A stretch of DNA of 64,000 bases, from NCBI GenBank assembly GCA_016218365.1, contig JACREF010000011.1, positions 9,094 through 73,093 on the forward strand, written 5' to 3'. This document shows, piece after piece, positions 5,388 through 38,892 of this stretch. The DNA is from Gammaproteobacteria bacterium (lineage in GTDB: Bacteria; Pseudomonadota; Gammaproteobacteria; SZUA-140). Both the position numbers and the translations under genes were made by a program. The notes beneath the pieces were generated by a model, which had not been told where the DNA came from, ran no database searches, and saw nothing but the letters and a program-made list of their open reading frames with translations. The stretch's first letter is position 1, and every line of letters begins with the position of its first letter.

Positions 5388-6638
5388 ATGAGTTGCATCA
5401 CTGATGAAAAGTTTGCAGTAGCCTATTACACCAGCAACAGAAAGACCGGTTCGATATCGATAGTTGATTTTGCTGGTGGCAAGCACACGGTGACCCGGTT
5501 GCCGGTGGCGGCCGAGACTGGCCTGGCCAAGGAGCTGAAGCCGCTGCTGGTCGGGCTGACCGAGTCGCGCCAGGTGATCCTGCTTGACCCCAAGACCAAG
5601 AAGATCCAGATCCAGCCGGCGTTGCCTGCCGACGCCTTTCCGGCGCACATCTACACCGATAGCCAATCCGGTCGTGACTGGTTCATGAACGACGGGGACA
5701 AGGAGACCGGTAACGATGTGCTGAACTGCGGCGACAAGGGTTCATCGGTAACCATCATCGAAAATACTGCCAGCAACTCGGCCCGCTATCTGCAAACGCT
5801 GTGTGTTGGTCGCGGACACCATCAGGCAAATTTCAGCTATCCGTCGCCGCAGGCCCCGGCGGTTCCACGTCAGGCCTATATCAGCAATCTGAAGGACGGC
5901 ACGTTGTCGGTCATCGGTAATGATCCGGCCCGGGCCTCTGATTACCTGCAGGTGCTGGCGACGATCAATCTCGCCGAGATCGAACGCGAGGAAGGCATGA
6001 CAGCACCGGCGGTGCCCAATAATTCTTTTCCACACGGACTGGTGTATTCGCAGGTTTCCGGCAAGGTCTATAACCTGAACAACGGCTATGGCACCGTGGC
6101 GGTCATCGATCCGCACACCCACCAGATCGAGCAGCGCCTGGGGTTCAAGGGCCACAGCAACCTGCTGATTACACCGGACGGCCGCTTCATCATCGGTCGT
6201 GGCGCCGACCGTAAATCGGATCCGGCCCATGTGCTGGCGAATCTGACTGTCATGGATGCCGCTATGCTGGCTGTTGTCGACAAGCAGCTGCTGAAGGATA
6301 TCTATATCAGCAAATATTTCTTCAATGCCGAGGGTAGCAAGTTGTATCTGACGACCGGTGTCTCCGGTAGCGATGAGCAGGTTGCAAACATCAAGGGCGA
6401 TGCCTTGCTGGTGTTCGATCTGACGGGGCTGCCGACGCTGCGCCTGAAAAAGGAGCTGCGTCTTGGCGCATCGTCAGGTTCCATTGATTTTCTGGTTCGC
6501 GATGGCAAGACCCGGCTGGTGCTTTCATCCAATTCCGAGCTGGGAACGCTGACGGTCATTGATGCAGTCAGTGATGAGATCCTGGAAACCGTCCATGTTG
6601 GTGACAGCGCCAGTCATTCGCGGGTCTGGGTGCTGTAA
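5388..6638 (+). CDS. YVTN-family beta-propeller repeat protein (no obvious signal peptide)
   Basis: Recurrent G-x-V-x-V-ID / LxxxG...DG beta-strand repeats typical of 7-bladed YVTN propellers; TATAAT-containing promoter candidate at ~5315-5350. Confidence 0.55.
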   Translation: MSCITDEKFAVAYYTSNRKTGSISIVDFAGGKHTVTRLPVAAETGLAKELKPLLVGLTESRQVILLDPKTKKIQIQPALPADAFPAHIYTDSQSGRDWFMNDGDKETGNDVLNCGDKGSSVTIIENTASNSARYLQTLCVGRGHHQANFSYPSPQAPAVPRQAYISNLKDGTLSVIGNDPARASDYLQVLATINLAEIEREEGMTAPAVPNNSFPHGLVYSQVSGKVYNLNNGYGTVAVIDPHTHQIEQRLGFKGHSNLLITPDGRFIIGRGADRKSDPAHVLANLTVMDAAMLAVVDKQLLKDIYISKYFFNAEGSKLYLTTGVSGSDEQVANIKGDALLVFDLTGLPTLRLKKELRLGASSGSIDFLVRDGKTRLVLSSNSELGTLTVIDAVSDEILETVHVGDSASHSRVWVL

Positions 6639-30340: not shown

Positions 30341-30733
30341 CTATGGCAGCATCGCATCATGTGGCGTTGCGACCCGTCTGGAGAGTTGCAGCGCATGGTC
30401 GTCGTTCCCGTACGACCATGTCACCTCGACCCCGAGCTGGCGGGCATCGGGTAGCGCCGCATCGCTTGTGACCGTCCACTGCCGGGTATAGCGCACACCA
30501 TTTTCATCGGCCTGGTCACTGCCGGGCATCAACTGATCGATGCCGCCGGTGGCGGTCTGTTGTTGCAGCAGCTCGATCTGCTGCTGCGCCAGGTTCAGCG
30601 CGGCGCCCTGTTGGCGGCTGTATTGCAGCTGCAGCCGGCTGTCGATGACCAGCGACAGCAAGGCCAGCAGGCCGATGGTCATGATCAGCATCGTCACCAG
30701 CGCCTCGATCAGGGTAAAGCCGTTGCGCATCAT
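30341..30733 (-). CDS. pilV: Type IV pilus minor pilin PilV-like
   Basis: MMRNGFTLIEALVTMLIMTIGLLALLSL prepilin-type N-terminus. Confidence 0.65.
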   Translation of the reverse strand: MMRNGFTLIEALVTMLIMTIGLLALLSLVIDSRLQLQYSRQQGAALNLAQQQIELLQQQTATGGIDQLMPGSDQADENGVRYTRQWTVTSDAALPDARQLGVEVTWSYGNDDHALQLSRRVATPHDAMLP

Positions 30734-30735
30734 GG

Positions 30736-31206
30736 TCAGAAATCCCGCCAGGTACCCGGCAGCTGCGACACCTGCCAGCGGCCGTTGTACGGCGTTCGAT
30801 ACAGATACTGCTGTTGTATCATGACACCCTCATCGACCGTCAGCGGTGATTGTACGCTGACCAGCAGATAATCCGGGTAGCGGCGGTCGCGCGTCAGCTG
30901 CAGCGTTGCCCCGGCAGATGGGGCAGGGATCATGGCCTGCTGGGCGTAGCTGTCGATGTCCAGCCAGACCGGATCATTCATGCGCAGCCATTGCACCGCA
31001 TACTCAAACGCCGAGTCGGCCGCGGCCTGTGCCCGACGCAGCTGATGTTCATTACCCTGCATCCGTGTCGTCGCCAGCGTGTTGCTGGCAACGACCTGGA
31101 CCAGCAGCCCGGCGGCGAGCAGCATCAGCAGTGCGATGACCAGCGTTGTGCCGCCATGCTGGCGGTGGTGGCGATCAGAGGCGACTGAGCAGTGGATTGC
31201 GCACAT
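30736..31206 (-). CDS. pilX: Type IV pilus minor pilin PilX-like (PilX_N domain; exact start uncertain)
   Basis: QHGGTTLVIALLMLLAAGLLVQVVASNTL hydrophobic PilX_N-type segment. Confidence 0.45.
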   Translation of the reverse strand: MCAIHCSVASDRHHRQHGGTTLVIALLMLLAAGLLVQVVASNTLATTRMQGNEHQLRRAQAAADSAFEYAVQWLRMNDPVWLDIDSYAQQAMIPAPSAGATLQLTRDRRYPDYLLVSVQSPLTVDEGVMIQQQYLYRTPYNGRWQVSQLPGTWRDF

Positions 31207-31849
31207 GGATCTGTTCCTGCAGCGTATGACGGGTATGCGGCTGACCCTGCAGCTGGCCAGCGAGCGTGATGCCGATCAGCATGTCACCGACGCATGCTGC
31301 GCCCGTGCTGCAAGGCGAGCTCGTTGCCATCGCGTGATGGACGGTGTCGAGTGTGAATTGCAGCGTGGTGATCTCGATACCGGCCGTCGTGATGTCCTGC
31401 CACTGGCCGCTGCTGCAGGCGGCGGCGCTCGCACTGCTGCGGGTCTCCAGTGCGCCGCTGCGCTGCCGGTACCCGAACAGTTCCAGGCTGCCATCGTTGA
31501 CGAGGCCGTCACCGTCGAGGTCATAACTGAACGTGATGCAGGAATCGGCCGCCTCGCTGACGGTGGCGCGCGCCAGCCGCGGCCGGGTGGCGGGCTGCAG
31601 AAACGGGTTGTCATACAGTGACGCGGCGGAGCCCGGTTGCCAGTGCCAGTAACCGGCGCGGCGCAGGTCACGGGTCATCAACAACACGGTGCTGCGCAGT
31701 TCATGTTCAAGGCGTAACTGGCCCAGCTGCCGCTGACTGCTTGCGGCAAGCTGCAGCCAGGCATTGAGCAGCGTGGCGAGCAGCAGCAGGCCGAGCAGGC
31801 TGCCGAGCAGCAGTTCAATCAGCGTCATCCCGCGTTGCCGGGTCAACAT
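31175..31849 (-). CDS. pilW: Type IV pilus minor pilin PilW-like (start set at MLTRQRGMTLIELLLG)
   Basis: Prepilin-type N-terminus; ORF-track upstream extension lacks pilin features and overlaps the FimT-like gene. Confidence 0.55.
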   Translation of the reverse strand: MLTRQRGMTLIELLLGSLLGLLLLATLLNAWLQLAASSQRQLGQLRLEHELRSTVLLMTRDLRRAGYWHWQPGSAASLYDNPFLQPATRPRLARATVSEAADSCITFSYDLDGDGLVNDGSLELFGYRQRSGALETRSSASAAACSSGQWQDITTAGIEITTLQFTLDTVHHAMATSSPCSTGAACVGDMLIGITLAGQLQGQPHTRHTLQEQIHVRNPLLSRL

Positions 31850-32397
31850 AGCGGATAGCCATTGAATAATGACGTGCTGGCCGGATTGCAGATGCGCACC
31901 CGACCCGGCAGGCTGACGCGCACCTGCAGGCTGTCGGCATATTGATTTTTCAATACCACGGTGCCAAAGCCGGCGGTAGCGCGCAGCGGTGCAAACGTCG
32001 TGTAACGCTGGGTGCCAAAGCGGGCCTGCGGCATCGCGATGCCGGGGTAGTCGGCGGCCTGGCCGGTCATCATTTCCACCGTGCCATGGCGCTGCAGCTG
32101 GCAACGATTGCTCAGTGCGCCAGCGCTGCAATCACAGTCCGGCAGCTCGCCGATGCCATAGCACCACGGCCCGGTATCGCCGGGGCGAAAGCTGACATGC
32201 AAGGCTTGATTGCGCCGCAGCGCCTCGGAGCGGGTGAACTGCAGTGTGCGGGTGATGTCCTGCGCCGCCGCGGCCAGCCGCTGGCGGCCGACCAGCCGGC
32301 CATAGGCCTCACCGCCAGCCAGCGTCAGCACGGCGAGCACGATCAAGACCAGCAGCAGTTCGGCGAATGTGACGCCGCGTTGTACATCCTGGTACAT
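31843..32397 (-). CDS. fimT: FimT/FimU (GspH-like) minor pilin
   Basis: QRGVTFAELLLVLIVLAVLTLAG degenerate prepilin N-terminus; GspH/FimT-type downstream helix (AAAAQDITRTLQFTRSEALRRN). Confidence 0.55.
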   Translation of the reverse strand: MYQDVQRGVTFAELLLVLIVLAVLTLAGGEAYGRLVGRQRLAAAAQDITRTLQFTRSEALRRNQALHVSFRPGDTGPWCYGIGELPDCDCSAGALSNRCQLQRHGTVEMMTGQAADYPGIAMPQARFGTQRYTTFAPLRATAGFGTVVLKNQYADSLQVRVSLPGRVRICNPASTSLFNGYPLC

Positions 32398-32500
32398 ATA
32401 AGGCGCGCCTCCATGCGCGAAGAAACAAAAATACGCCGATCCTGCGTTGCCGGCAAGTGCCGGATGGTCTGTTATACTGCGTCGACTACGGAGAATCCTG

Positions 32501-33538
32501 ATGGCGCAGCTGCATATCGTAATGTCGGACCTGCTCGGCAGCTGGCCGGCGCCACAGTTAAAGGCGGCGAGCGCCGGGCTCGACGTGTCGTTGCTCGAGC
32601 GTGTATTGTCGCGCGCCGTTTGTCATGAAATCTCCGGCCCACCGGCTCACCTGCCGTTGCTGACGAGGCTGTTTGACTGGCCAGCTGATCAAGACGTGCC
32701 GGTCGCGGCACTGACATCCTTGATCGACCGGCCCGGACACAAGGCCGCTTATACGTTGCGCGCCGATCCGGTGCATCTGAAGGCTGACCGTGACCGCGTC
32801 GTGTTGTACCGGGCGCGCGATCTCGCGGTCACTGACACAGAGGCGCAGCAGCTCGTGACCGACATCAACACGCAGCTGGCCGAACCCGGCTGGCAGCTCA
32901 GCGCAGATCATCCGTCACGCTGGTATGTCGATGTGGTTGCACCGCCGGAGGGCCTGATTACGCAGCCGCCCGATGCGGCGCTGGGCCAGGACATCTTCCC
33001 ATGCCAGCCGTCCGGGGCATCCGGCGGCCTGTGGCGCCGCCGCATCAACGAGATCCAGATGCTGCTGCATGAGCATCCGCTTAACGTTGCGCGTGCCGCT
33101 CACGGCCAGCATGAGATCAACAGCCTGTGGCTGTGGGGCGGCGGAGTATTACCAGAGTCCGCACCGCGATTGGCGTGGCACCAGGTTTTCACGGCTGATC
33201 CGCTGGCCGCGGGCCTGGCGCGATGTTGTAACATCCGCTTGATCGATCAAGCCATGACTGCCGAGCAGTTGTTGTCACATCTGCAACCCGGCGCGCCGCA
33301 GTTGCTGATCATTGAACGCGGGCCCGAGGCGATCGCACTCGGCGACGGAGTGTCGTGGCGGCAGCGGCTGGAACAATGGACCAACGACTGGCTGTCACCG
33401 TTACTGAAGGCGATGACGCATGGCGAGATCGAAGAATTAATCCTCTATCCCGGCAATGGCCGCAGCTACCAACTGACCCGCTGGCGCTGGCGGCTCGGTT
33501 GGCGGCCGCGGCCGCTGGCGGGGTTTGCAGCGGGTTGA
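32501..33538 (+). CDS. Hypothetical protein (345 aa)
   Basis: ATG with GGAG RBS; no confident motif assignment (LWLWGGG segment noted); small hairpin cgggttgaacccg overlaps the stop. Confidence 0.4.
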   Translation: MAQLHIVMSDLLGSWPAPQLKAASAGLDVSLLERVLSRAVCHEISGPPAHLPLLTRLFDWPADQDVPVAALTSLIDRPGHKAAYTLRADPVHLKADRDRVVLYRARDLAVTDTEAQQLVTDINTQLAEPGWQLSADHPSRWYVDVVAPPEGLITQPPDAALGQDIFPCQPSGASGGLWRRRINEIQMLLHEHPLNVARAAHGQHEINSLWLWGGGVLPESAPRLAWHQVFTADPLAAGLARCCNIRLIDQAMTAEQLLSHLQPGAPQLLIIERGPEAIALGDGVSWRQRLEQWTNDWLSPLLKAMTHGEIEELILYPGNGRSYQLTRWRWRLGWRPRPLAGFAAG

Positions 33539-33583
33539 ACCCGGTTACTGATTGCAGTCACAGGTATATTATAGAAAATTTTT

Positions 33584-34348
33584 CTATGATCCCGGTTTTG
33601 TTTTTTTATTTCTCGGCTTCTTCCGTGGCGTTCTTACTGTAAGCTGATCATTTGATGACTCTTGGTGGGCCAGAAAGATTGAATCCACTAGTCGACTGCA
33701 GCTTGAAGTAACGCGAGCGAGCACTTTTATTTGTTCCCTGCATGACAAGCTATCAGCCTTTAGAGGGTAGTTAATTTGATGGTCAACTTCACCCCATACC
33801 TCTTCCATGAGCGTGCGTACCTGTATCTCGCAGGTCAGCTCAGTTCTGGTATTGGGCTGTACCACGTAGTGTACGCTGGTGTACATAGTTTTAGAATCTT
33901 CAGTAGCAACTCCGATTTTGGAAAAGTATTCGCGAGATTCATCGTCCCAGGTTCGTGCGCATGGCCCCTCTATTATCAGCCATCTCTGTTCATTAAAGAT
34001 CTCCAAAAGCACGGAATTAATATCTTCAATTTGCTTTGTGTGAAGGTGAAGAATTCTAAAGCCAGCTAAATCGTTAATTTCTTTGAATAGATTTTCGAGA
34101 GTGTAAGGGAATTCTGTAGATTTAGTCTTTGCTTCTAGTCCTTTGCGAATCAATTTTTCGCGAAGATGTTCAGGATCTTTGACTCTCCCTTTCACGGAGT
34201 GAGCAAGTTTCTTCAGCTTCGTGGAAGTTTCGACGTAGCCCGCCAGCTGGGATAGCAACAAAGTAAAGCTTGGCTGGTTATCAACATAATGTTGCACCAA
34301 TCTGTCTATCAGTTTCAATTCAGCTGCGCGAAGCTTGGATGGCATCAT
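33584..34348 (-). CDS. RelA/SpoT-domain nucleotidyltransferase (small alarmone synthetase / toxSAS-like), Lys-rich C-terminal tail
   Basis: G-loop HSVKGRVKDPEHLREKLIRK; catalytic DLAGFRIL; TMYTSVHYVV; EIQVRTLMEEVWGEVDHQINY (canonical synthetase motifs in order); low-GC codon usage; ATGA overlap with the ParA-like gene. Confidence 0.8.
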   Translation of the reverse strand: MMPSKLRAAELKLIDRLVQHYVDNQPSFTLLLSQLAGYVETSTKLKKLAHSVKGRVKDPEHLREKLIRKGLEAKTKSTEFPYTLENLFKEINDLAGFRILHLHTKQIEDINSVLLEIFNEQRWLIIEGPCARTWDDESREYFSKIGVATEDSKTMYTSVHYVVQPNTRTELTCEIQVRTLMEEVWGEVDHQINYPLKADSLSCREQIKVLARVTSSCSRLVDSIFLAHQESSNDQLTVRTPRKKPRNKKTKPGS

Positions 34349-35370
34349 GAGTCCGTCGGGATGATCTCTGTGCGCTGGATGATGTGTTTGGCGATACGTT
34401 CGAATTCTGCTTTTGCTTCCGTTTTCTGCGCTTGGGTTCCGCCATTCACCAATGCAAAAGGCTGCCCCTGTTCTTGTGCAAGGGTTGCTAATCCTCCAAA
34501 ATCCTTTACTTGACCGAGTTTATTCTGGCTAAAAGATGCGCTTGCCAAGTCTTTATCAATTCGGCGAAGAACGGTAGCAATCTCGCTGTTGGCAGTTTTC
34601 TCCAGTTTTGCAACATATGGCGCAAAACTTCCGGAGATCGCTCCTCCATACATGCGGAACTTTTGCAGTATATAGCCCATAAATTTTGGTCTCCCTGGCA
34701 GTAGCATCATTCCGTCAGGCGCTAGCTGAGAAATCACCTGCCAATCTTTAATCCATGACGAGAGAGAGTGCCCAAGTGTGCTAAGCGCTCTGGTCGAAAA
34801 AAGGTCGCATGCAGCCGGGACGATGAAATAGTCGCAATCAAGCAGTACCACGCGATTTAGGGCGCCAATATTCGGGCCGACATCGTAGAAAACGAAGTCA
34901 GCTTTGATTTGTGTCGCAACTATATTTACTACTTCGCTTATTGCAGATGCGCCACGAAAGCCGCGCATCTTTCTTTGCAAACATTCAGTCCAAATTAGCT
35001 GCAAGTCTTGTTCAAATTCTGAGAGGCGAATATCTCCAGGTATTAGAAATATATTCTTTAGGCGTTCAGGAGGCTTTACTTCGCGAACTTCTCCCGTCGA
35101 TTCTGCGATAGGCTTGATTGAAGACCAAATGGTGACTCCAGTTTCCGAATCCGAATTATCGAGCCAGTCATCAACCACGCCTGGTTCGACTAGATATGAA
35201 GTGAGATTACATTGAGGATCTGCGTCAACTAGTAGGACACGCTTTCCAATATCTGCGAGGGCTGAAGCAATGTTAACAGTTAGCGTAGTTTTACCTACGC
35301 CGCCCTTATGGTTGTATAGGGCCAATCGTATAGATGGGTGACGAGAATCTCGAAGGGATTTACGCGCCAT
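34345..35370 (-). CDS. ParA/MinD-family deviant Walker A ATPase with ~90-aa C-terminal extension
   Basis: KGGVGKTT deviant Walker A, VDADPQ A' motif, hydrophobic-D Walker B (FVFYDVGPN); TAATG overlap with upstream ORF; no parB/centromere partner. Confidence 0.85.
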   Translation of the reverse strand: MARKSLRDSRHPSIRLALYNHKGGVGKTTLTVNIASALADIGKRVLLVDADPQCNLTSYLVEPGVVDDWLDNSDSETGVTIWSSIKPIAESTGEVREVKPPERLKNIFLIPGDIRLSEFEQDLQLIWTECLQRKMRGFRGASAISEVVNIVATQIKADFVFYDVGPNIGALNRVVLLDCDYFIVPAACDLFSTRALSTLGHSLSSWIKDWQVISQLAPDGMMLLPGRPKFMGYILQKFRMYGGAISGSFAPYVAKLEKTANSEIATVLRRIDKDLASASFSQNKLGQVKDFGGLATLAQEQGQPFALVNGGTQAQKTEAKAEFERIAKHIIQRTEIIPTDS

Positions 35371-35954
35371 TATTCATTTGCGCTCTTGAGCGTTTTTGTT
35401 TGGGGTTTGCGCGACTTTCGCTTTTTGCGTATTCCTTCGGTGCCGGACTTCGCGGCATCGCGGTCGGGTAGATGTTGTATGTAGAGTTCTCCAGCCGCGC
35501 TTATTTGCTTGTTACCCTTAACCGCTTGAACAAGTAGCCCGGCCTTGGCGGCATTGTCAACAGCAATCGACGCATTTGAAAATTTAGGTTGAGCAGCCTC
35601 AGTATTTAAGGTGCTTATATCCAAGGTTTTAAAGTAAGGGGTTTCACGATAATGCGTGAGATAGTATGCAAGGCAAGTAACTCTTTCCACATCAGTGCGA
35701 GGAGCTTTTTCGCGCATAAAATCCTTCGGCGAGACAGTTCTATCTTCAGAGAAAGTTGAACTGTTAAAAGGAGAGCTTATAACTGATGAGGAGGGTGAGG
35801 CCGTCCTAGATGGGCTATGATTTCCCTGCAGAGAGAGATCGAGGAACGTTGCCACAGCTTGTAAAGTTCTCTGTTGGTCTTCCTTGCTCAGCTTTTTTAG
35901 AGCAGCAATTATCTCAGTCAATATATCGAAATCATTAGGGGAGACTGGGTCCAT
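35370..35954 (-). CDS. Hypothetical protein: N-terminal helical segment, S/P-rich linker, C-terminal domain with Lys/Arg-rich tail
   Basis: First gene of the low-GC operon; GAGG RBS; KKRKSRKPQTKTLKS tail suggests nucleic-acid binding. Confidence 0.5.
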   Translation of the reverse strand: MDPVSPNDFDILTEIIAALKKLSKEDQQRTLQAVATFLDLSLQGNHSPSRTASPSSSVISSPFNSSTFSEDRTVSPKDFMREKAPRTDVERVTCLAYYLTHYRETPYFKTLDISTLNTEAAQPKFSNASIAVDNAAKAGLLVQAVKGNKQISAAGELYIQHLPDRDAAKSGTEGIRKKRKSRKPQTKTLKSANE

Positions 35955-36171
35955 ATTTTTGCCTCATTAAAGAGTGATTTTTGTATATGCTTCAAAACTA
36001 CCTGATTATATTATATATATCAATACGACAATGAAGAAGTAGCGGAAATTATCCGGGACAGCCCCTCTTTGTTTTGTGAGCGATTGCATGAGAATCCGTG
36101 TCAGAGAGGATTTTTTCGTATTAGCAATATTTGTTTTCTGTCCTGGTTTTTTTGCACAAAAAATACAAGTT

Positions 36172-36957
36172 CTACTTCGTGCTGACCGGCTTGCGGAACT
36201 TGAACAAGAACTTGTCGGTCTTGCCGCGGATCGCCGGGTCGAACACCTTGGCGCTATGGTCGTCGTCGGCGTTAAGCAGCGCATCGGACTGGCCGGCCAG
36301 TTCAAAGCCGGCGGCCAGCACCTCGGCCTTCACGGTCGCGGCATCGATGCGGTGCAGTGTCTCGGTGTCGCGCAGGCCTGAGCCTGGCGCGGCGGCGTGG
36401 TCGACGATGACATACAGCCCGCCGGGTTTCAGCGCATCGAAGATCGCCTTGTTGACCTTTGCCAGATCGGCCGGGCCGAAGAAGCTGTCATGCAGGTCAT
36501 GGTAGTTCATCGAGGTCCAGACCACGTCGAGTGTTTCGGGTGCCTTGAAGGCATTGACCGCTGGCTTGATGACGGTGACATTCGCATAGTGCGGGTCGGC
36601 GGCGATGGCGGCGACGGCCGCATCGGCGTTCTTCCGCATCCCGAACAGCTCTTCGGGCACCACGGCATACACATGACCATGTTGGCCGACGATGGTTGAA
36701 AACAGCCGCGTGACGTAGCCACCACCCGGGATGAAATCCGCCACCCGGTCACCCGGCTTGATGCCGGTGAACGTCAACACCGCTAGCGGTTTGCGCTCGG
36801 CATCCTGTGCACGGTCGGTGTCCGGCCGCGCGGGATCGGCGATCGCCGCGGCGATCTGGTCCTGCGCGCTCGCCGCCGAGCCGGCCAGCGCCAGCGGAGA
36901 CAAGAGTGAAAGCAGCACGGCAGTGAACAATAAAGCTCTGGATGTATTGTTAATCAT
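36172..36957 (-). CDS. Secreted class I SAM-dependent methyltransferase-like protein
   Basis: Start at MINNTS with AAGGAGG RBS; signal peptide; FTGIKPGDRVADFIPGGGY SAM-binding-like motif. Confidence 0.65.
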   Translation of the reverse strand: MINNTSRALLFTAVLLSLLSPLALAGSAASAQDQIAAAIADPARPDTDRAQDAERKPLAVLTFTGIKPGDRVADFIPGGGYVTRLFSTIVGQHGHVYAVVPEELFGMRKNADAAVAAIAADPHYANVTVIKPAVNAFKAPETLDVVWTSMNYHDLHDSFFGPADLAKVNKAIFDALKPGGLYVIVDHAAAPGSGLRDTETLHRIDAATVKAEVLAAGFELAGQSDALLNADDDHSAKVFDPAIRGKTDKFLFKFRKPVSTK

Positions 36958-37152
36958 CGATTCCTCCTTGGGGTGCGCGGGATGGCGGTACACATGGACG
37001 CCCGGCCTATCACTTTCAACTGCGATCGAGTGTGCCATGAGCAGGCTGCTTTTGCAAAAAACCGGCTCAGGGCCAATCCGTTGCAAATGAAGGTTTTTTA
37101 ACCTGACCGCGGCGCAGAAAACCGCCTATAATGCCAGCATGAGGTCACAACC

Positions 37153-38892
37153 ATGACAACGACCCGAACCATCATCCGCCGTGACGCAGCTGATGCCGGT
37201 CTGCCGTGGCCGGATGATGCGCTGCACCCGGTGCTGGCGCGCGTTTACCGGCAGCGCGGCATCGAGTCGCCGCAGCAGCTGGAGCGTTCGCTGGATCGCT
37301 TGCTGCCGTATCAGTTGCTCGGTGGTCTGAATGAGGCGACGGCGCTGCTGTATCAGGCGCTGGTCGAACACTGGCGGGTCATCGTCATCGGTGATTTCGA
37401 TGCCGACGGCGCGACCAGCACCGCGGTCGCGGTGCGTGCGTTGCGGATGATGGGCGCGGCCGATGTTGATTTCCTGGTGCCGAACCGCTTTCGTTTTGGT
37501 TACGGGCTGACGCCGGAGATCGTCGAGGTCGCGGCGCAGCGCCGACCGCAGCTGATTATCACCGTCGACAACGGCATCGCCAGCCACGCCGGTGTGGCGG
37601 CCGCCAATGCGCTGGGCATTCGCGTGCTGGTCACCGATCACCACCTGCCGGCCGACACGCTGCCGGCGGCCGAGGCGATCGTCAATCCGAACCTGCCCGG
37701 CGATCCATTTCCGAGCAAACACCTGGCCGGTGTCGGCGTGATCTTCTATGTGATGCTGGCCTTGCGTGCCTTGCTGCGCAGCACTGGCTGGTTCGCCGCG
37801 CGCGGCCTGGCCGATCCGAACCTGGCGCAGTTGCTCGACCTGGTCGCGCTCGGCACCGTCGCCGATGTCGTGCCGCTCGATCAGAATAACCGCATCCTGG
37901 TCGGCCAGGGGCTGGCGCGCATCCGCGGTGGCCAGGCCTGCGCCGGCGTGCGCGCCTTGATCCGGATTGCCGGTCGCGATGCGAGCCGGCTCAGCGCCGC
38001 GGACCTGGGGTTCGCGCTCGGGCCGCGGCTCAATGCCGCCGGCCGGCTTGAAGACATGTCGCTGGGGATCGCCTGTCTGCTGTGCGACGATGAACCGCGC
38101 GCGCTGGGCATGGCCGGGCAGCTCGATGTGCTGAATGTCGAACGGCGCCGCATCGAGCAGGACATGAAGGACGAGGCGCTGGCCGGCCTCGCCGGCTTGC
38201 AACTGGACGACGCGGAGCTGCCGTATGGGCTATGCCTGTACGATCCGGCCTGGCATCAGGGCGTCATCGGCATCCTGGCCTCGCGGATCAAGGAGCGCTT
38301 TCACCGCCCGACGGTGGTGTTTGCCAATGGCGATGACGGTGAGATCAAGGGTTCGGCGCGCTCGATCCCGGGGCTGCCGATCCGCGATGTGCTGGAGGCG
38401 GTCGCGACCCGCCATCCGGGGCTGCTGAGCAAGTTCGGCGGTCACAGCATGGCGGCCGGGCTGACATTGCCGGTTGCGCGTTATGACGATTTCTGTCAGG
38501 CCTTTGAGCACGAGGTGCGGCAGCGGCTGACGGCCGCCGACCTGCAGCCGGTGGTGCACAGCGACGGCGAGCTGGCGCCCGACGAGCTGACGCTGGACCT
38601 GGCCGAGCTGCTGCGCAGCGCCGGGCCGTGGGGTCAGGGCTTTCCGGAGCCGACCTTTGACGGCCGGTTCGAGGTGCTGGAGCGGCGGGTGCTCAACGAG
38701 CGCCACCTCAAATTACGGGTGCGGCCGCAGGGCGGCGGTCAGGCGCTCGATGCGCTGGCCTTCAACGCCGATGCCCGCGATCTGCTCGGCGGTGACCAGC
38801 CGGCGCTGCGGCTGGCCTACCGGCTGGATGTCAATGAATACCGCGGCCAGCGCAGCGTACAGCTGATCGTTGAGCACCTCGAGGCGGTGTGA
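37153..38892 (+). CDS. recJ: Single-stranded-DNA-specific exonuclease RecJ
   Basis: DHH motifs (VIGDFDADGATS, DHH in VTDHHLP), DHHA1 and C-terminal OB domain. Confidence 0.9.
   Translation: MTTTRTIIRRDAADAGLPWPDDALHPVLARVYRQRGIESPQQLERSLDRLLPYQLLGGLNEATALLYQALVEHWRVIVIGDFDADGATSTAVAVRALRMMGAADVDFLVPNRFRFGYGLTPEIVEVAAQRRPQLIITVDNGIASHAGVAAANALGIRVLVTDHHLPADTLPAAEAIVNPNLPGDPFPSKHLAGVGVIFYVMLALRALLRSTGWFAARGLADPNLAQLLDLVALGTVADVVPLDQNNRILVGQGLARIRGGQACAGVRALIRIAGRDASRLSAADLGFALGPRLNAAGRLEDMSLGIACLLCDDEPRALGMAGQLDVLNVERRRIEQDMKDEALAGLAGLQLDDAELPYGLCLYDPAWHQGVIGILASRIKERFHRPTVVFANGDDGEIKGSARSIPGLPIRDVLEAVATRHPGLLSKFGGHSMAAGLTLPVARYDDFCQAFEHEVRQRLTAADLQPVVHSDGELAPDELTLDLAELLRSAGPWGQGFPEPTFDGRFEVLERRVLNERHLKLRVRPQGGGQALDALAFNADARDLLGGDQPALRLAYRLDVNEYRGQRSVQLIVEHLEAV

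Follow-up and report, generated by a model that had tools for sequence, protein, structure and literature searches.

Organization of the locus

The locus considered here lies in a 64-kb stretch of a gammaproteobacterial contig (JACREF010000011.1), which is referred to as the window and to which all position numbers relate. It contains a cassette of three genes, all located on the minus strand and named A (winged-helix protein), B (ParA/MinD-type ATPase), and C (RelA/SpoT synthetase). Gene C, which had been described in a first-pass annotation as a stand-alone RelA/SpoT synthetase-domain protein, is found exactly where that annotation placed it (33584-34348, 254 aa), and its identification is based on the open reading frame (ORF), Pfam, homologs, and a structural model. 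A protein 100% identical to C (P0001, from a 272-kb contig of a Gammaproteobacteria metagenome-assembled genome, MAG) is annotated from the second methionine and is therefore 253 aa long. The description of C as stand-alone does not hold, since C is the third gene of an overlapping A-B-C operon and is translationally coupled to the two genes upstream of it. The start of gene B (34345-35370, 341 aa) overlaps the stop of gene A (35370-35954, 194 aa) by 1 nt, and the start of C overlaps the stop of B by 4 nt.

The cassette is the only content of a low-GC islet of 2.6 kb (33545-36171), which was delimited using the composition profile, the ORF map, and both junction sequences. The islet has a GC content of about 45% in a host of about 62-65%; measured locally, the values are 45.0-45.5% at 34-36 kb and 64.6-65.4% in the flanks. 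The foreign composition claimed for the gene is thus borne out, and C was acquired horizontally. Host ORFs ending at 33538 and 36172 bound the islet, and no tRNA or integrase was found near it. At one edge, the stop codon of C is overlapped by an AT-rich palindrome with 11-nt arms and a 1-nt spacer (ATTATAGAAAA-T-TTTTCTATGAT, 33568-33590), which was identified by a repeat search and from the sequence itself. This palindrome may serve as an operator or a recombination site, or it may form a terminator-like hairpin. A consensus scan found no sigma-70-type promoter upstream of A.

Catalytic center and fold of the synthetase

The PF04607 synthetase profile matches aa 54-196 of C (33761-34189, minus strand) over profile positions 1-110 of 113, with a score of 63.7 bits against a gathering cut-off of 27 (E=2.3e-17). 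It is the sole Pfam domain above threshold, in agreement with the earlier claim that hydrolase, TGS, and ACT domains are missing. The proposed small alarmone synthetase (SAS) architecture is likewise upheld: C consists of the synthetase domain only, and its model is made up of N-terminal helices, the catalytic core, and a single helix at the C-terminus. The AlphaFold model has the SAS fold, with a mean predicted local distance difference test score (pLDDT) of 85.6 and a predicted template modeling score (pTM) of 0.77.

All four synthetase blocks quoted in the first-pass annotation are present in the translation of C, in the order given there. One label, however, has to be corrected. In RelA/SpoT homolog (RSH) synthetases, RxKxxxxxxxK is the ATP-phosphate-binding motif, and the YxSxH block is the G-loop. 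Naming the first block the G-loop was wrong by established structural knowledge of RSH enzymes; the G-loop of C is Y156-x-S158-x-H160. In an alignment of 64 homologs, the three residues of this G-loop are invariant, as are R55, K57, and K65 of the RxKxxxxxxxK motif, G96 and R98 of the DxxGxR motif (D93 being at least 90% conserved), and E174, Q176, R178, and T179 of the ExQxRT motif. Across 80 genomic loci, the motif residues are unchanged, with the sole exception of T179S at one locus (L036). The active site of C is intact, and the protein is a genuine RelA/SpoT synthetase of the SAS type. The phmmer alignment with RelQ (2be3) reveals a family-specific insertion, GPxARTWDDE (aa 127-137), immediately before the G-loop; its residues W134, D135, and E137 are invariant in the 64 homologs. 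The isoelectric point of the core has a family median of 8.6 and is 6.7 in the window copy of C, values that do not discriminate between nucleotide and tRNA acceptors.

The basic tail reported for C is real with regard to charge, although not as a conserved sequence element. A net charge of +6 is carried by aa 227-254 (33587-33670, minus strand), and the median tail charge across the family is +5. In the family alignment, conservation extends to about residue 226, beyond which the sequence is variable, basic, and length-polymorphic. In the model, aa 201-238 form one long helix, and aa 239-254 are disordered, of low confidence, and non-conserved; the tail comprises the end of this helix and the variable stretch that follows, with a pLDDT of 45-65. 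The pseudo-zinc-finger or antitoxin-like domain of the CapRel type that had been considered for the C-terminus is absent, as only the helix and the disordered, non-conserved tail are found there and no Cys/His pattern is present. Because neither the alignment nor the model contains a structured extra C-terminal domain, a CapRel-type fused toxin-antitoxin was ruled out.

Comparison with solved proteins places C at a distance from all of them. A Foldseek search with the model gave RelP (6ewz, E=1.7e-10) as the best match, followed by RelQ (5ded, 1e-9), and weaker matches to CapRel (7ztb, E=1e-6) and to an exported Streptomyces SAS (E=3e-6). When phmmer and the family profile were run against all PDB sequences, only RelP/RelQ-type SAS were matched, with E-values of about 1e-6 to 2e-6, and no solved toxic SAS (toxSAS) reached E <=1. 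The identity to solved RelP and RelQ is about 19-22%, and the score of C against the NCBIfam YjbM equivalog (NF053588, GTPPhKinYjbM) is 36.7 bits, far below the cut-off of 320. This agrees with the earlier claim that C is not a housekeeping RelQ/RelP enzyme, and membership of C in that group was rejected on the basis of the NCBIfam cut-off, the low identity, and the genomic context. These comparisons also did not place C in a validated toxSAS subfamily (FaRel, FaRel2, PhRel, PhRel2, or CapRel). Judged by its sequence, which is about 20% identical to that of any solved protein, C appears to represent a distinct SAS subfamily.

The partner proteins A and B

Protein A contains an N-terminal helical hairpin (aa 8-37), a disordered linker (aa 44-67), a winged-helix domain (aa 76-172; 35439-35729, minus strand), and a Lys/Arg-rich tail (aa 173-194). 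No family could be assigned to it by sequence in Pfam, NCBIfam, PADLOC, or PHROGs, and its fold was recognized by structure comparison only. Profiles from Pfam, PADLOC, and NCBIfam gave no ParB or ribbon-helix-helix match. The charge of the A tail is always at least +5 across the family. In both A and C, the basic charge of the tail is conserved while its sequence varies.

Protein B is a ParA/MinD-type P-loop ATPase, as indicated by matches to AAA_31 (E=7.7e-29) and CbiA (6.5e-18). It carries a deviant Walker A motif (K22-G-G-V-G-K27-T-T; 35284-35307, minus strand), which was read from the translation and is invariant in the family alignment. The signature lysine of this motif is typical of dimerizing ParA/MinD ATPases. 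Across 70 homologs, KGGVGKTT, DxDPQxN, and DxGP are all invariant. The closest solved relative of B is an uncharacterized protein (3pg5, E=1.7e-32), with Soj/ParA reaching only about 1e-11. Furthermore, B does not reach the cut-off of any curated equivalog for partition, MinD, or BcsQ proteins in NCBIfam (e.g., 58.4 vs. 180 bits for ParA_partition), and it matches the PHROG family annotated as a ParA-like partition protein at 2e-42. A C-terminal extension of about 130 aa is specific to the subfamily to which B belongs.

Conservation and distribution of the cassette

Relatives of C that are 44-76% identical to it were recovered at 80 loci when a single genome was scanned for each species. These loci are distributed over more than 12 phyla, including Proteobacteria (alpha, beta, gamma, and delta), Bacteroidota, Acidobacteriota, Myxococcota, Chloroflexota, Nitrospirota, Planctomycetota, Verrucomicrobiota, Actinomycetota, Gemmatimonadota, and Omnitrophota. 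According to tblastn searches with A and B, the three genes are collinear, in the same order and orientation, at about 72 of the 80 loci, and most exceptions are contig ends. Many loci with an apparently broken B gene come from long-read MAGs, which are prone to frameshifts, and may be assembly artifacts. Clustering of all flanking ORFs recovered C at 80, B at 77, and A at 72 loci, and no other flanking family occurred at more than three of the 80. The identities of A, B, and C co-vary with r of about 0.7 (69 loci). Because the synteny is strict, no other family is conserved in the flanks, and the identities co-vary, the comparison of these sequences marks A-B-C as a self-contained module that moves as a unit.

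Several copies depart from the usual arrangement. At L042 (3989-5296), an insertion sequence-type DDE transposase (DUF772 + DDE_Tnp_1) replaces A and B immediately upstream of an orphan C gene. A diverged B-C pair without A (C 44% and B 30% identical) is present on the chromid pNK81 of Caballeronia sp. NK8 (L082:3669-5639), where the ATPase frame is broken inside the Walker A motif, either in a decaying copy or by a sequencing error. A 2.8-kb contig binned as Candidatus Micrarchaeota (L051, DUGF01000021.1) carries a full A-B-C cassette that is 55-61% identical to bacterial ones; this is probably bin contamination, the alternative being cross-domain transfer.

More distant relatives of C, with 32-35% identity, occur on Bacillus plasmids including pXO1, in a Ralstonia phage, and in a Vibrio tectivirus-like element, in all cases without a ParA partner; the plasmids among these carriers are virulence plasmids. 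The copies in question are located on a B. cereus plasmid (L083:3914-4996), B. anthracis pXO1 (H13-H25), Ralstonia phage YO102_1 (H26), and the Vibrio element (L084:4001-4492). The B. cereus protein is 360 aa long, and its C-terminal extension could be a fused regulatory domain.

Genomic neighborhoods

In some genomes, the cassette is found next to restriction, toxin-antitoxin (TA), or mobility genes. In S. maltophilia (L085-L090), it lies directly behind aceE and next to genes for an SRA-HNH (ScoMcrA-like) restriction enzyme, Imm11 immunity genes, and type IV secretion system effectors of the XVIPCD type. The gene aceE, which encodes pyruvate dehydrogenase E1, also directly precedes the cassette in X. 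arboricola (L091:8428-12604), where a 57-aa ORF with a match to the C-terminal end of AceE (Transketolase_C_1) is found about 1.7 kb past C. The presence of this duplicated 3' fragment of aceE suggests site-specific integration of the islet into the aceE 3' end with target duplication. In Gallionella, the cassette adjoins a Gp49/HTH_37 TA pair, and in Paraflavitalea it is cargo of an integrative mobilizable element with relaxase, primase, HTH_17, and integrase genes. About 12 of 136 immediate neighbors match defense models at E <=1e-10, a rough estimate that has no background control and lends weak support.

Effector exchange on B-type ATPases

ATPases related to B are also found upstream of other effectors. 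Full-length relatives on annotated plasmids are 30-32% identical to B over 92-96% of its length. A profile built from the C-terminal extension of B alone matches the effector-paired ATPases at E-values of 1e-8 to 1e-12, so these ATPases and B form one subfamily. In Burkholderia glumae, the B-like ATPase gene overlaps a downstream HEPN_RiboL-PSP gene (37.7 bits vs. a cut-off of 28.4). On a Vibrio ponticus plasmid (L101:3004-4859), it overlaps a SIR2_2 gene, the product of which scores 71.9 bits and is also recognized by the SIR2 effector models for ThsA, LmuA, and Dsr2, and in B. gladioli it overlaps a gene for an uncharacterized 311-aa protein. The overlaps in these dyads amount to 1-4 nt. The ATPase-SIR2 dyad, with a 4-nt overlap, recurs with unrelated flanks in V. 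cholerae, Serratia marcescens, Paraburkholderia phytofirmans, and Shewanella baltica (L102-L108), the flanks in Shewanella baltica being prophage-like, with CI and Cro genes. No A-like gene was found in the HEPN, SIR2, or 311-aa-protein dyads examined. Some B-like ATPases occur solo, beside so-called mobile mystery proteins, a type I restriction-modification system, an Abi protein, or PRTRC genes. Plasmids with B-like genes have a separate bona fide ParA/ParG pair adjoining them.

RelA/SpoT, SIR2, and HEPN are established toxin or abortive-infection effector domains. One ATPase chassis that carries RelA/SpoT, SIR2, or HEPN effectors is the architecture expected of a conflict system. A dyad of a ParA/Soj-like ATPase and a HEPN protein of the MAE_18760 family has been predicted to be a TA system in which the ATPase is the antitoxin (Anantharaman et al. 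2013, PMC3710099). The cassette resembles this dyad in that an ATPase gene for about 340 aa lies immediately upstream of, and overlaps, a toxin-type effector gene, and the alignment of B with the ATPase of the B. glumae HEPN dyad is full-length and takes in the C-terminal extension. It differs in that the effector is of the RelA/SpoT type instead of a HEPN RNase, and in the addition of a third gene, A.

Two further observations concern the dyads themselves. In the ATPase-SIR2 dyads, the ATPase is about 330 aa and the SIR2_2 protein about 288 aa long, and the ATPase is not covered by any PADLOC system model; this two-gene module, which is widespread among Proteobacteria, looks like a candidate defense system in its own right. 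Genes of the H-NS family flank the ATPase-HEPN and ATPase-311-aa dyads on Burkholderia plasmids (L100:1725-2048; L096:2542-2871 and 5865-6182). This may be coincidence, as H-NS proteins serve as plasmid "stealth" factors, or it may reflect a link to nucleoid-associated proteins such as that in the PANGU system described below.

Relation to known systems

With RelQ and RelP, C shares the order of its motifs and the single-domain size class, and these enzymes are its best structural and sequence matches among solved proteins. Unlike them, C has the GPxARTWDDE insertion and a basic tail. RelQ and RelP are core genes, whereas C is accessory, mobile, and embedded in an operon.

A looser resemblance exists to AbiE, a type IV TA and abortive-infection system that combines the winged-helix antitoxin AbiEi with the nucleotidyltransferase toxin AbiEii. 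Like AbiE, the cassette pairs a winged-helix protein with predicted DNA binding and a putative toxin-type enzyme of the polymerase-beta-like nucleotidyltransferase fold in a mobile, defense-type operon. However, homology to AbiEi or AbiEii is not detectable (no PADLOC match), and the cassette has an extra ATPase and a transferase from a different branch of the superfamily.

The known toxSAS modules (FaRel, FaRel2, PhRel, PhRel2, and CapRel; PMC7229694) are similar to the cassette in that a single-domain synthetase with an intact active site is encoded in a conserved, overlapping, mobile small operon. The reasoning from TA-like synteny to toxicity that was used for these modules (PMC7229694) applies to C as well, and three-gene toxSAS operons and TA operons containing a regulator are already known (PMC7229694). 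The differences lie in the partners and in the enzyme. The known antitoxins are SAH, Panacea-type, and small proteins, whereas the partners of C are a ParA-like ATPase and a winged-helix protein. C also lacks the fused pseudo-zinc-finger antitoxin domain of CapRel, and neither its sequence nor its fold is closer to solved toxSAS than to RelP/RelQ.

The PANGU system provides an experimental example of a toxSAS controlled by a DNA-bound partner. In type I PANGU, the nucleoid-associated protein Pag1A is paired with the GRel toxSAS Pag1B, a tetrameric synthetase that is inert alone and is activated when its partner leaves damaged DNA (bioRxiv preprint 10.64898/2026.04.06.716658). In both PANGU and the cassette, a synthetase of the toxSAS or toxSAS-like type is linked genetically to a partner that binds, or is predicted to bind, DNA. 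The mode of activation in PANGU is compatible with the occurrence of intact orphan C genes and with the predicted DNA binding of A and B. PANGU consists of two genes, one for a 40-kDa ring-forming dimeric nucleoid-associated protein and one for a synthetase whose C-terminal DNA-mimic (DMK) domain is acidic; an ATPase is not mentioned (bioRxiv preprint 10.64898/2026.04.06.716658). The cassette, in contrast, has three genes with an ATPase at their core, its synthetase ends in a basic tail without any further domain, and the winged-helix protein A has a mass of 21 kDa. Membership in PANGU was therefore rejected on architecture.

A full-text literature search found no published description of a cassette composed of a RelA/SpoT synthetase, a ParA-like ATPase, and a winged-helix protein; only the HEPN-ParA/Soj dyad and PANGU proved relevant. 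The tripartite form of the cassette is new, and the two ideas that it combines, toxSAS modules and ParA/Soj-effector dyads, are known.

Proposed function and alternative explanations

The A-B-C cassette is probably an undescribed toxin or anti-phage module. The exchange of effectors on the B chassis, together with the mobile, restriction, and TA neighbors, argues for a conflict module, and a toxin-like role of C is plausible on the same genomic logic. That C would be the effector of such a mobile three-gene module, acting either in abortive-infection defense or in a TA-like manner, is considered moderately probable. The toxicity of C, the direction of its control by A and B, the trigger, and the substrate are proposals derived from comparative sequence analysis.

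The mechanism envisaged is as follows. C, a predicted pyrophosphokinase of the RelA/SpoT type, would arrest growth once unleashed, possibly by making or depleting nucleotides ((pp)pGpp or (pp)pApp), by depleting ATP, or by pyrophosphorylating the 3' ends of tRNA. B would act as an ATP-dependent dimerization switch and common chassis that holds or licenses the effector, which elsewhere is SIR2 or HEPN. Its dimer is probably DNA-associated, by analogy with other ParA ATPases. Through its winged helix and basic tail, A may tie the module to DNA, serving as a sensor of the nucleoid or DNA state, as an autoregulator of the operon, or as both. The basic tails of A and C are candidate elements for contacting the ATPase or for binding nucleic acids. 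A perturbation, such as a phage attack on the nucleoid or on the energy state, would flip the B switch.

A broader form of this proposal is advanced as tentative. According to it, B-type ATPases would constitute an unrecognized, widespread, and modular family of immune or conflict systems in which an ATP-dependent dimerization switch, probably associated with DNA, senses the DNA or energy state and licenses exchangeable suicide effectors (RelA/SpoT pyrophosphokinase, SIR2 NADase, or HEPN RNase). The RelA/SpoT branch would have gained the histone-H1-like protein A as another DNA-coupled component, so that the synthetase is switched on and not merely released.

Several observations weigh against the assignment of C to a conflict module. 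Both by sequence and by fold, C is nearer to the non-toxic RelP/RelQ than to CapRel. Most immediate neighbors of the cassette are unrelated housekeeping genes, and integrases account for only two of 136. The cassette is rare on plasmids (one diverged chromid copy) and in phage collections (one IMG/VR contig). No cassette protein matches a named system in PADLOC-DB v2, in which C has only weak matches (best Cas11b at 18.4 bits and PDC-S33 at 15.7 bits), B matches PDC-M28B at 31 bits through the P-loop only, and A has none. Finally, two orphan C genes (L042 and L052) that lack both A and B retain intact catalytic residues. It follows that C may be harmless alone, in which case B or A would not be a classical, indispensable antitoxin. 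The orphans offer a hint that C, by analogy with the PANGU synthetase, may be inert on its own.

This last point also bears on the rival explanation that fares best, namely a tripartite TA addiction module that stabilizes mobile DNA instead of acting against phage, with C as a constitutively toxic SAS, B as its antitoxin, and A as a DNA-binding autoregulator. The small overlapping genes and the mobile, patchy occurrence of the cassette are in keeping with it, as are its positions beside other TA pairs and inside mobile elements. Precedents can be found in the 2013 prediction of the ATPase as the HEPN antitoxin (PMC3710099) and in the three-gene toxSAS and regulator-containing TA operons (PMC7229694). 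Against it speak the orphan C genes, which have an intact active site and neither B nor A. In addition, the cassette is mostly chromosomal, located among housekeeping genes and rarely on plasmids, and a 341-aa ATPase with strictly conserved hydrolysis motifs would be unusually costly as an antitoxin and more closely resembles a switch or sensor. An addiction module is regarded as plausible, although clearly less likely than the main proposal.

The tolerance of orphan C genes is in keeping with a non-toxic regulatory synthetase, in which C would make (p)ppGpp or a related stress signal and A and B would couple it to the state of the nucleoid or the cell cycle. The closest solved relatives of C are indeed the housekeeping enzymes RelP and RelQ, ParA-family ATPases classically position cargo on the nucleoid, and the neighbors are mostly housekeeping genes. 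Nevertheless, C is only about 20% identical to RelP/RelQ and fails the YjbM equivalog (36.7 vs. 320 bits). Its foreign composition, its patchy distribution across phyla, and the lack of a conserved host context do not fit a regulatory gene, and the SIR2 and HEPN proteins that this ATPase chassis carries elsewhere act as effectors, not as signaling enzymes. The probability of such a regulatory role is judged to be low.

It is very improbable that the locus is a ParA-ParB-like partition locus left by an integrated plasmid, with A as the centromere-binding adaptor, B as the motor, and C as a passenger: although B matches ParA-type models, including the PHROG partition family, and A has a DNA-binding-type fold whose flexible basic tail loosely resembles the ATPase-stimulating tails of small ParB/ParG proteins, B stays below the cut-off of all curated partition equivalogs, a repeat search found no iterated centromere-like repeats in or beside the cassette, replication genes are missing, the flanks are chromosomal and different at every locus, real plasmids have a bona fide ParA/ParG pair next to their B-like genes, and C is strictly co-inherited, with SIR2 or HEPN in its place in the sister modules.

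Significance

The toxSAS field is young, with a handful of subfamilies and partner types characterized, and a partner that activates a toxSAS has only just emerged. The cassette represents a new toxSAS-like family with thousands of homologs in more than 12 phyla, an unprecedented pair of partners, and a link to SIR2 and HEPN modules via a ParA-like ATPase. If it is defensive, it would define a new family of modular anti-phage systems and a new role of ParA/MinD ATPases in the cell that goes beyond positioning and partition. Should it be a TA module, it would be the first testable case for the 2013 prediction of ParA/Soj ATPases as antitoxins. If the proposal for the B family is true, the principle of "nucleoid-integrity sensing" recently described for PANGU would apply to a second, much broader protein chassis as well. 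The experiment is simple, as the cassette consists of three small genes that can be cloned.

Surroundings of the islet in the window

No Pfam family matches the two ORFs that directly flank the islet (32447-33538 and 36172-37086). A cluster resembling type IV pilin or type II secretion minor-pseudopilin genes, which includes a GspH match at 31843-32397, is located shortly upstream of the islet at 30341-32397. A RecJ gene is also located near the islet, at 37153-38892.

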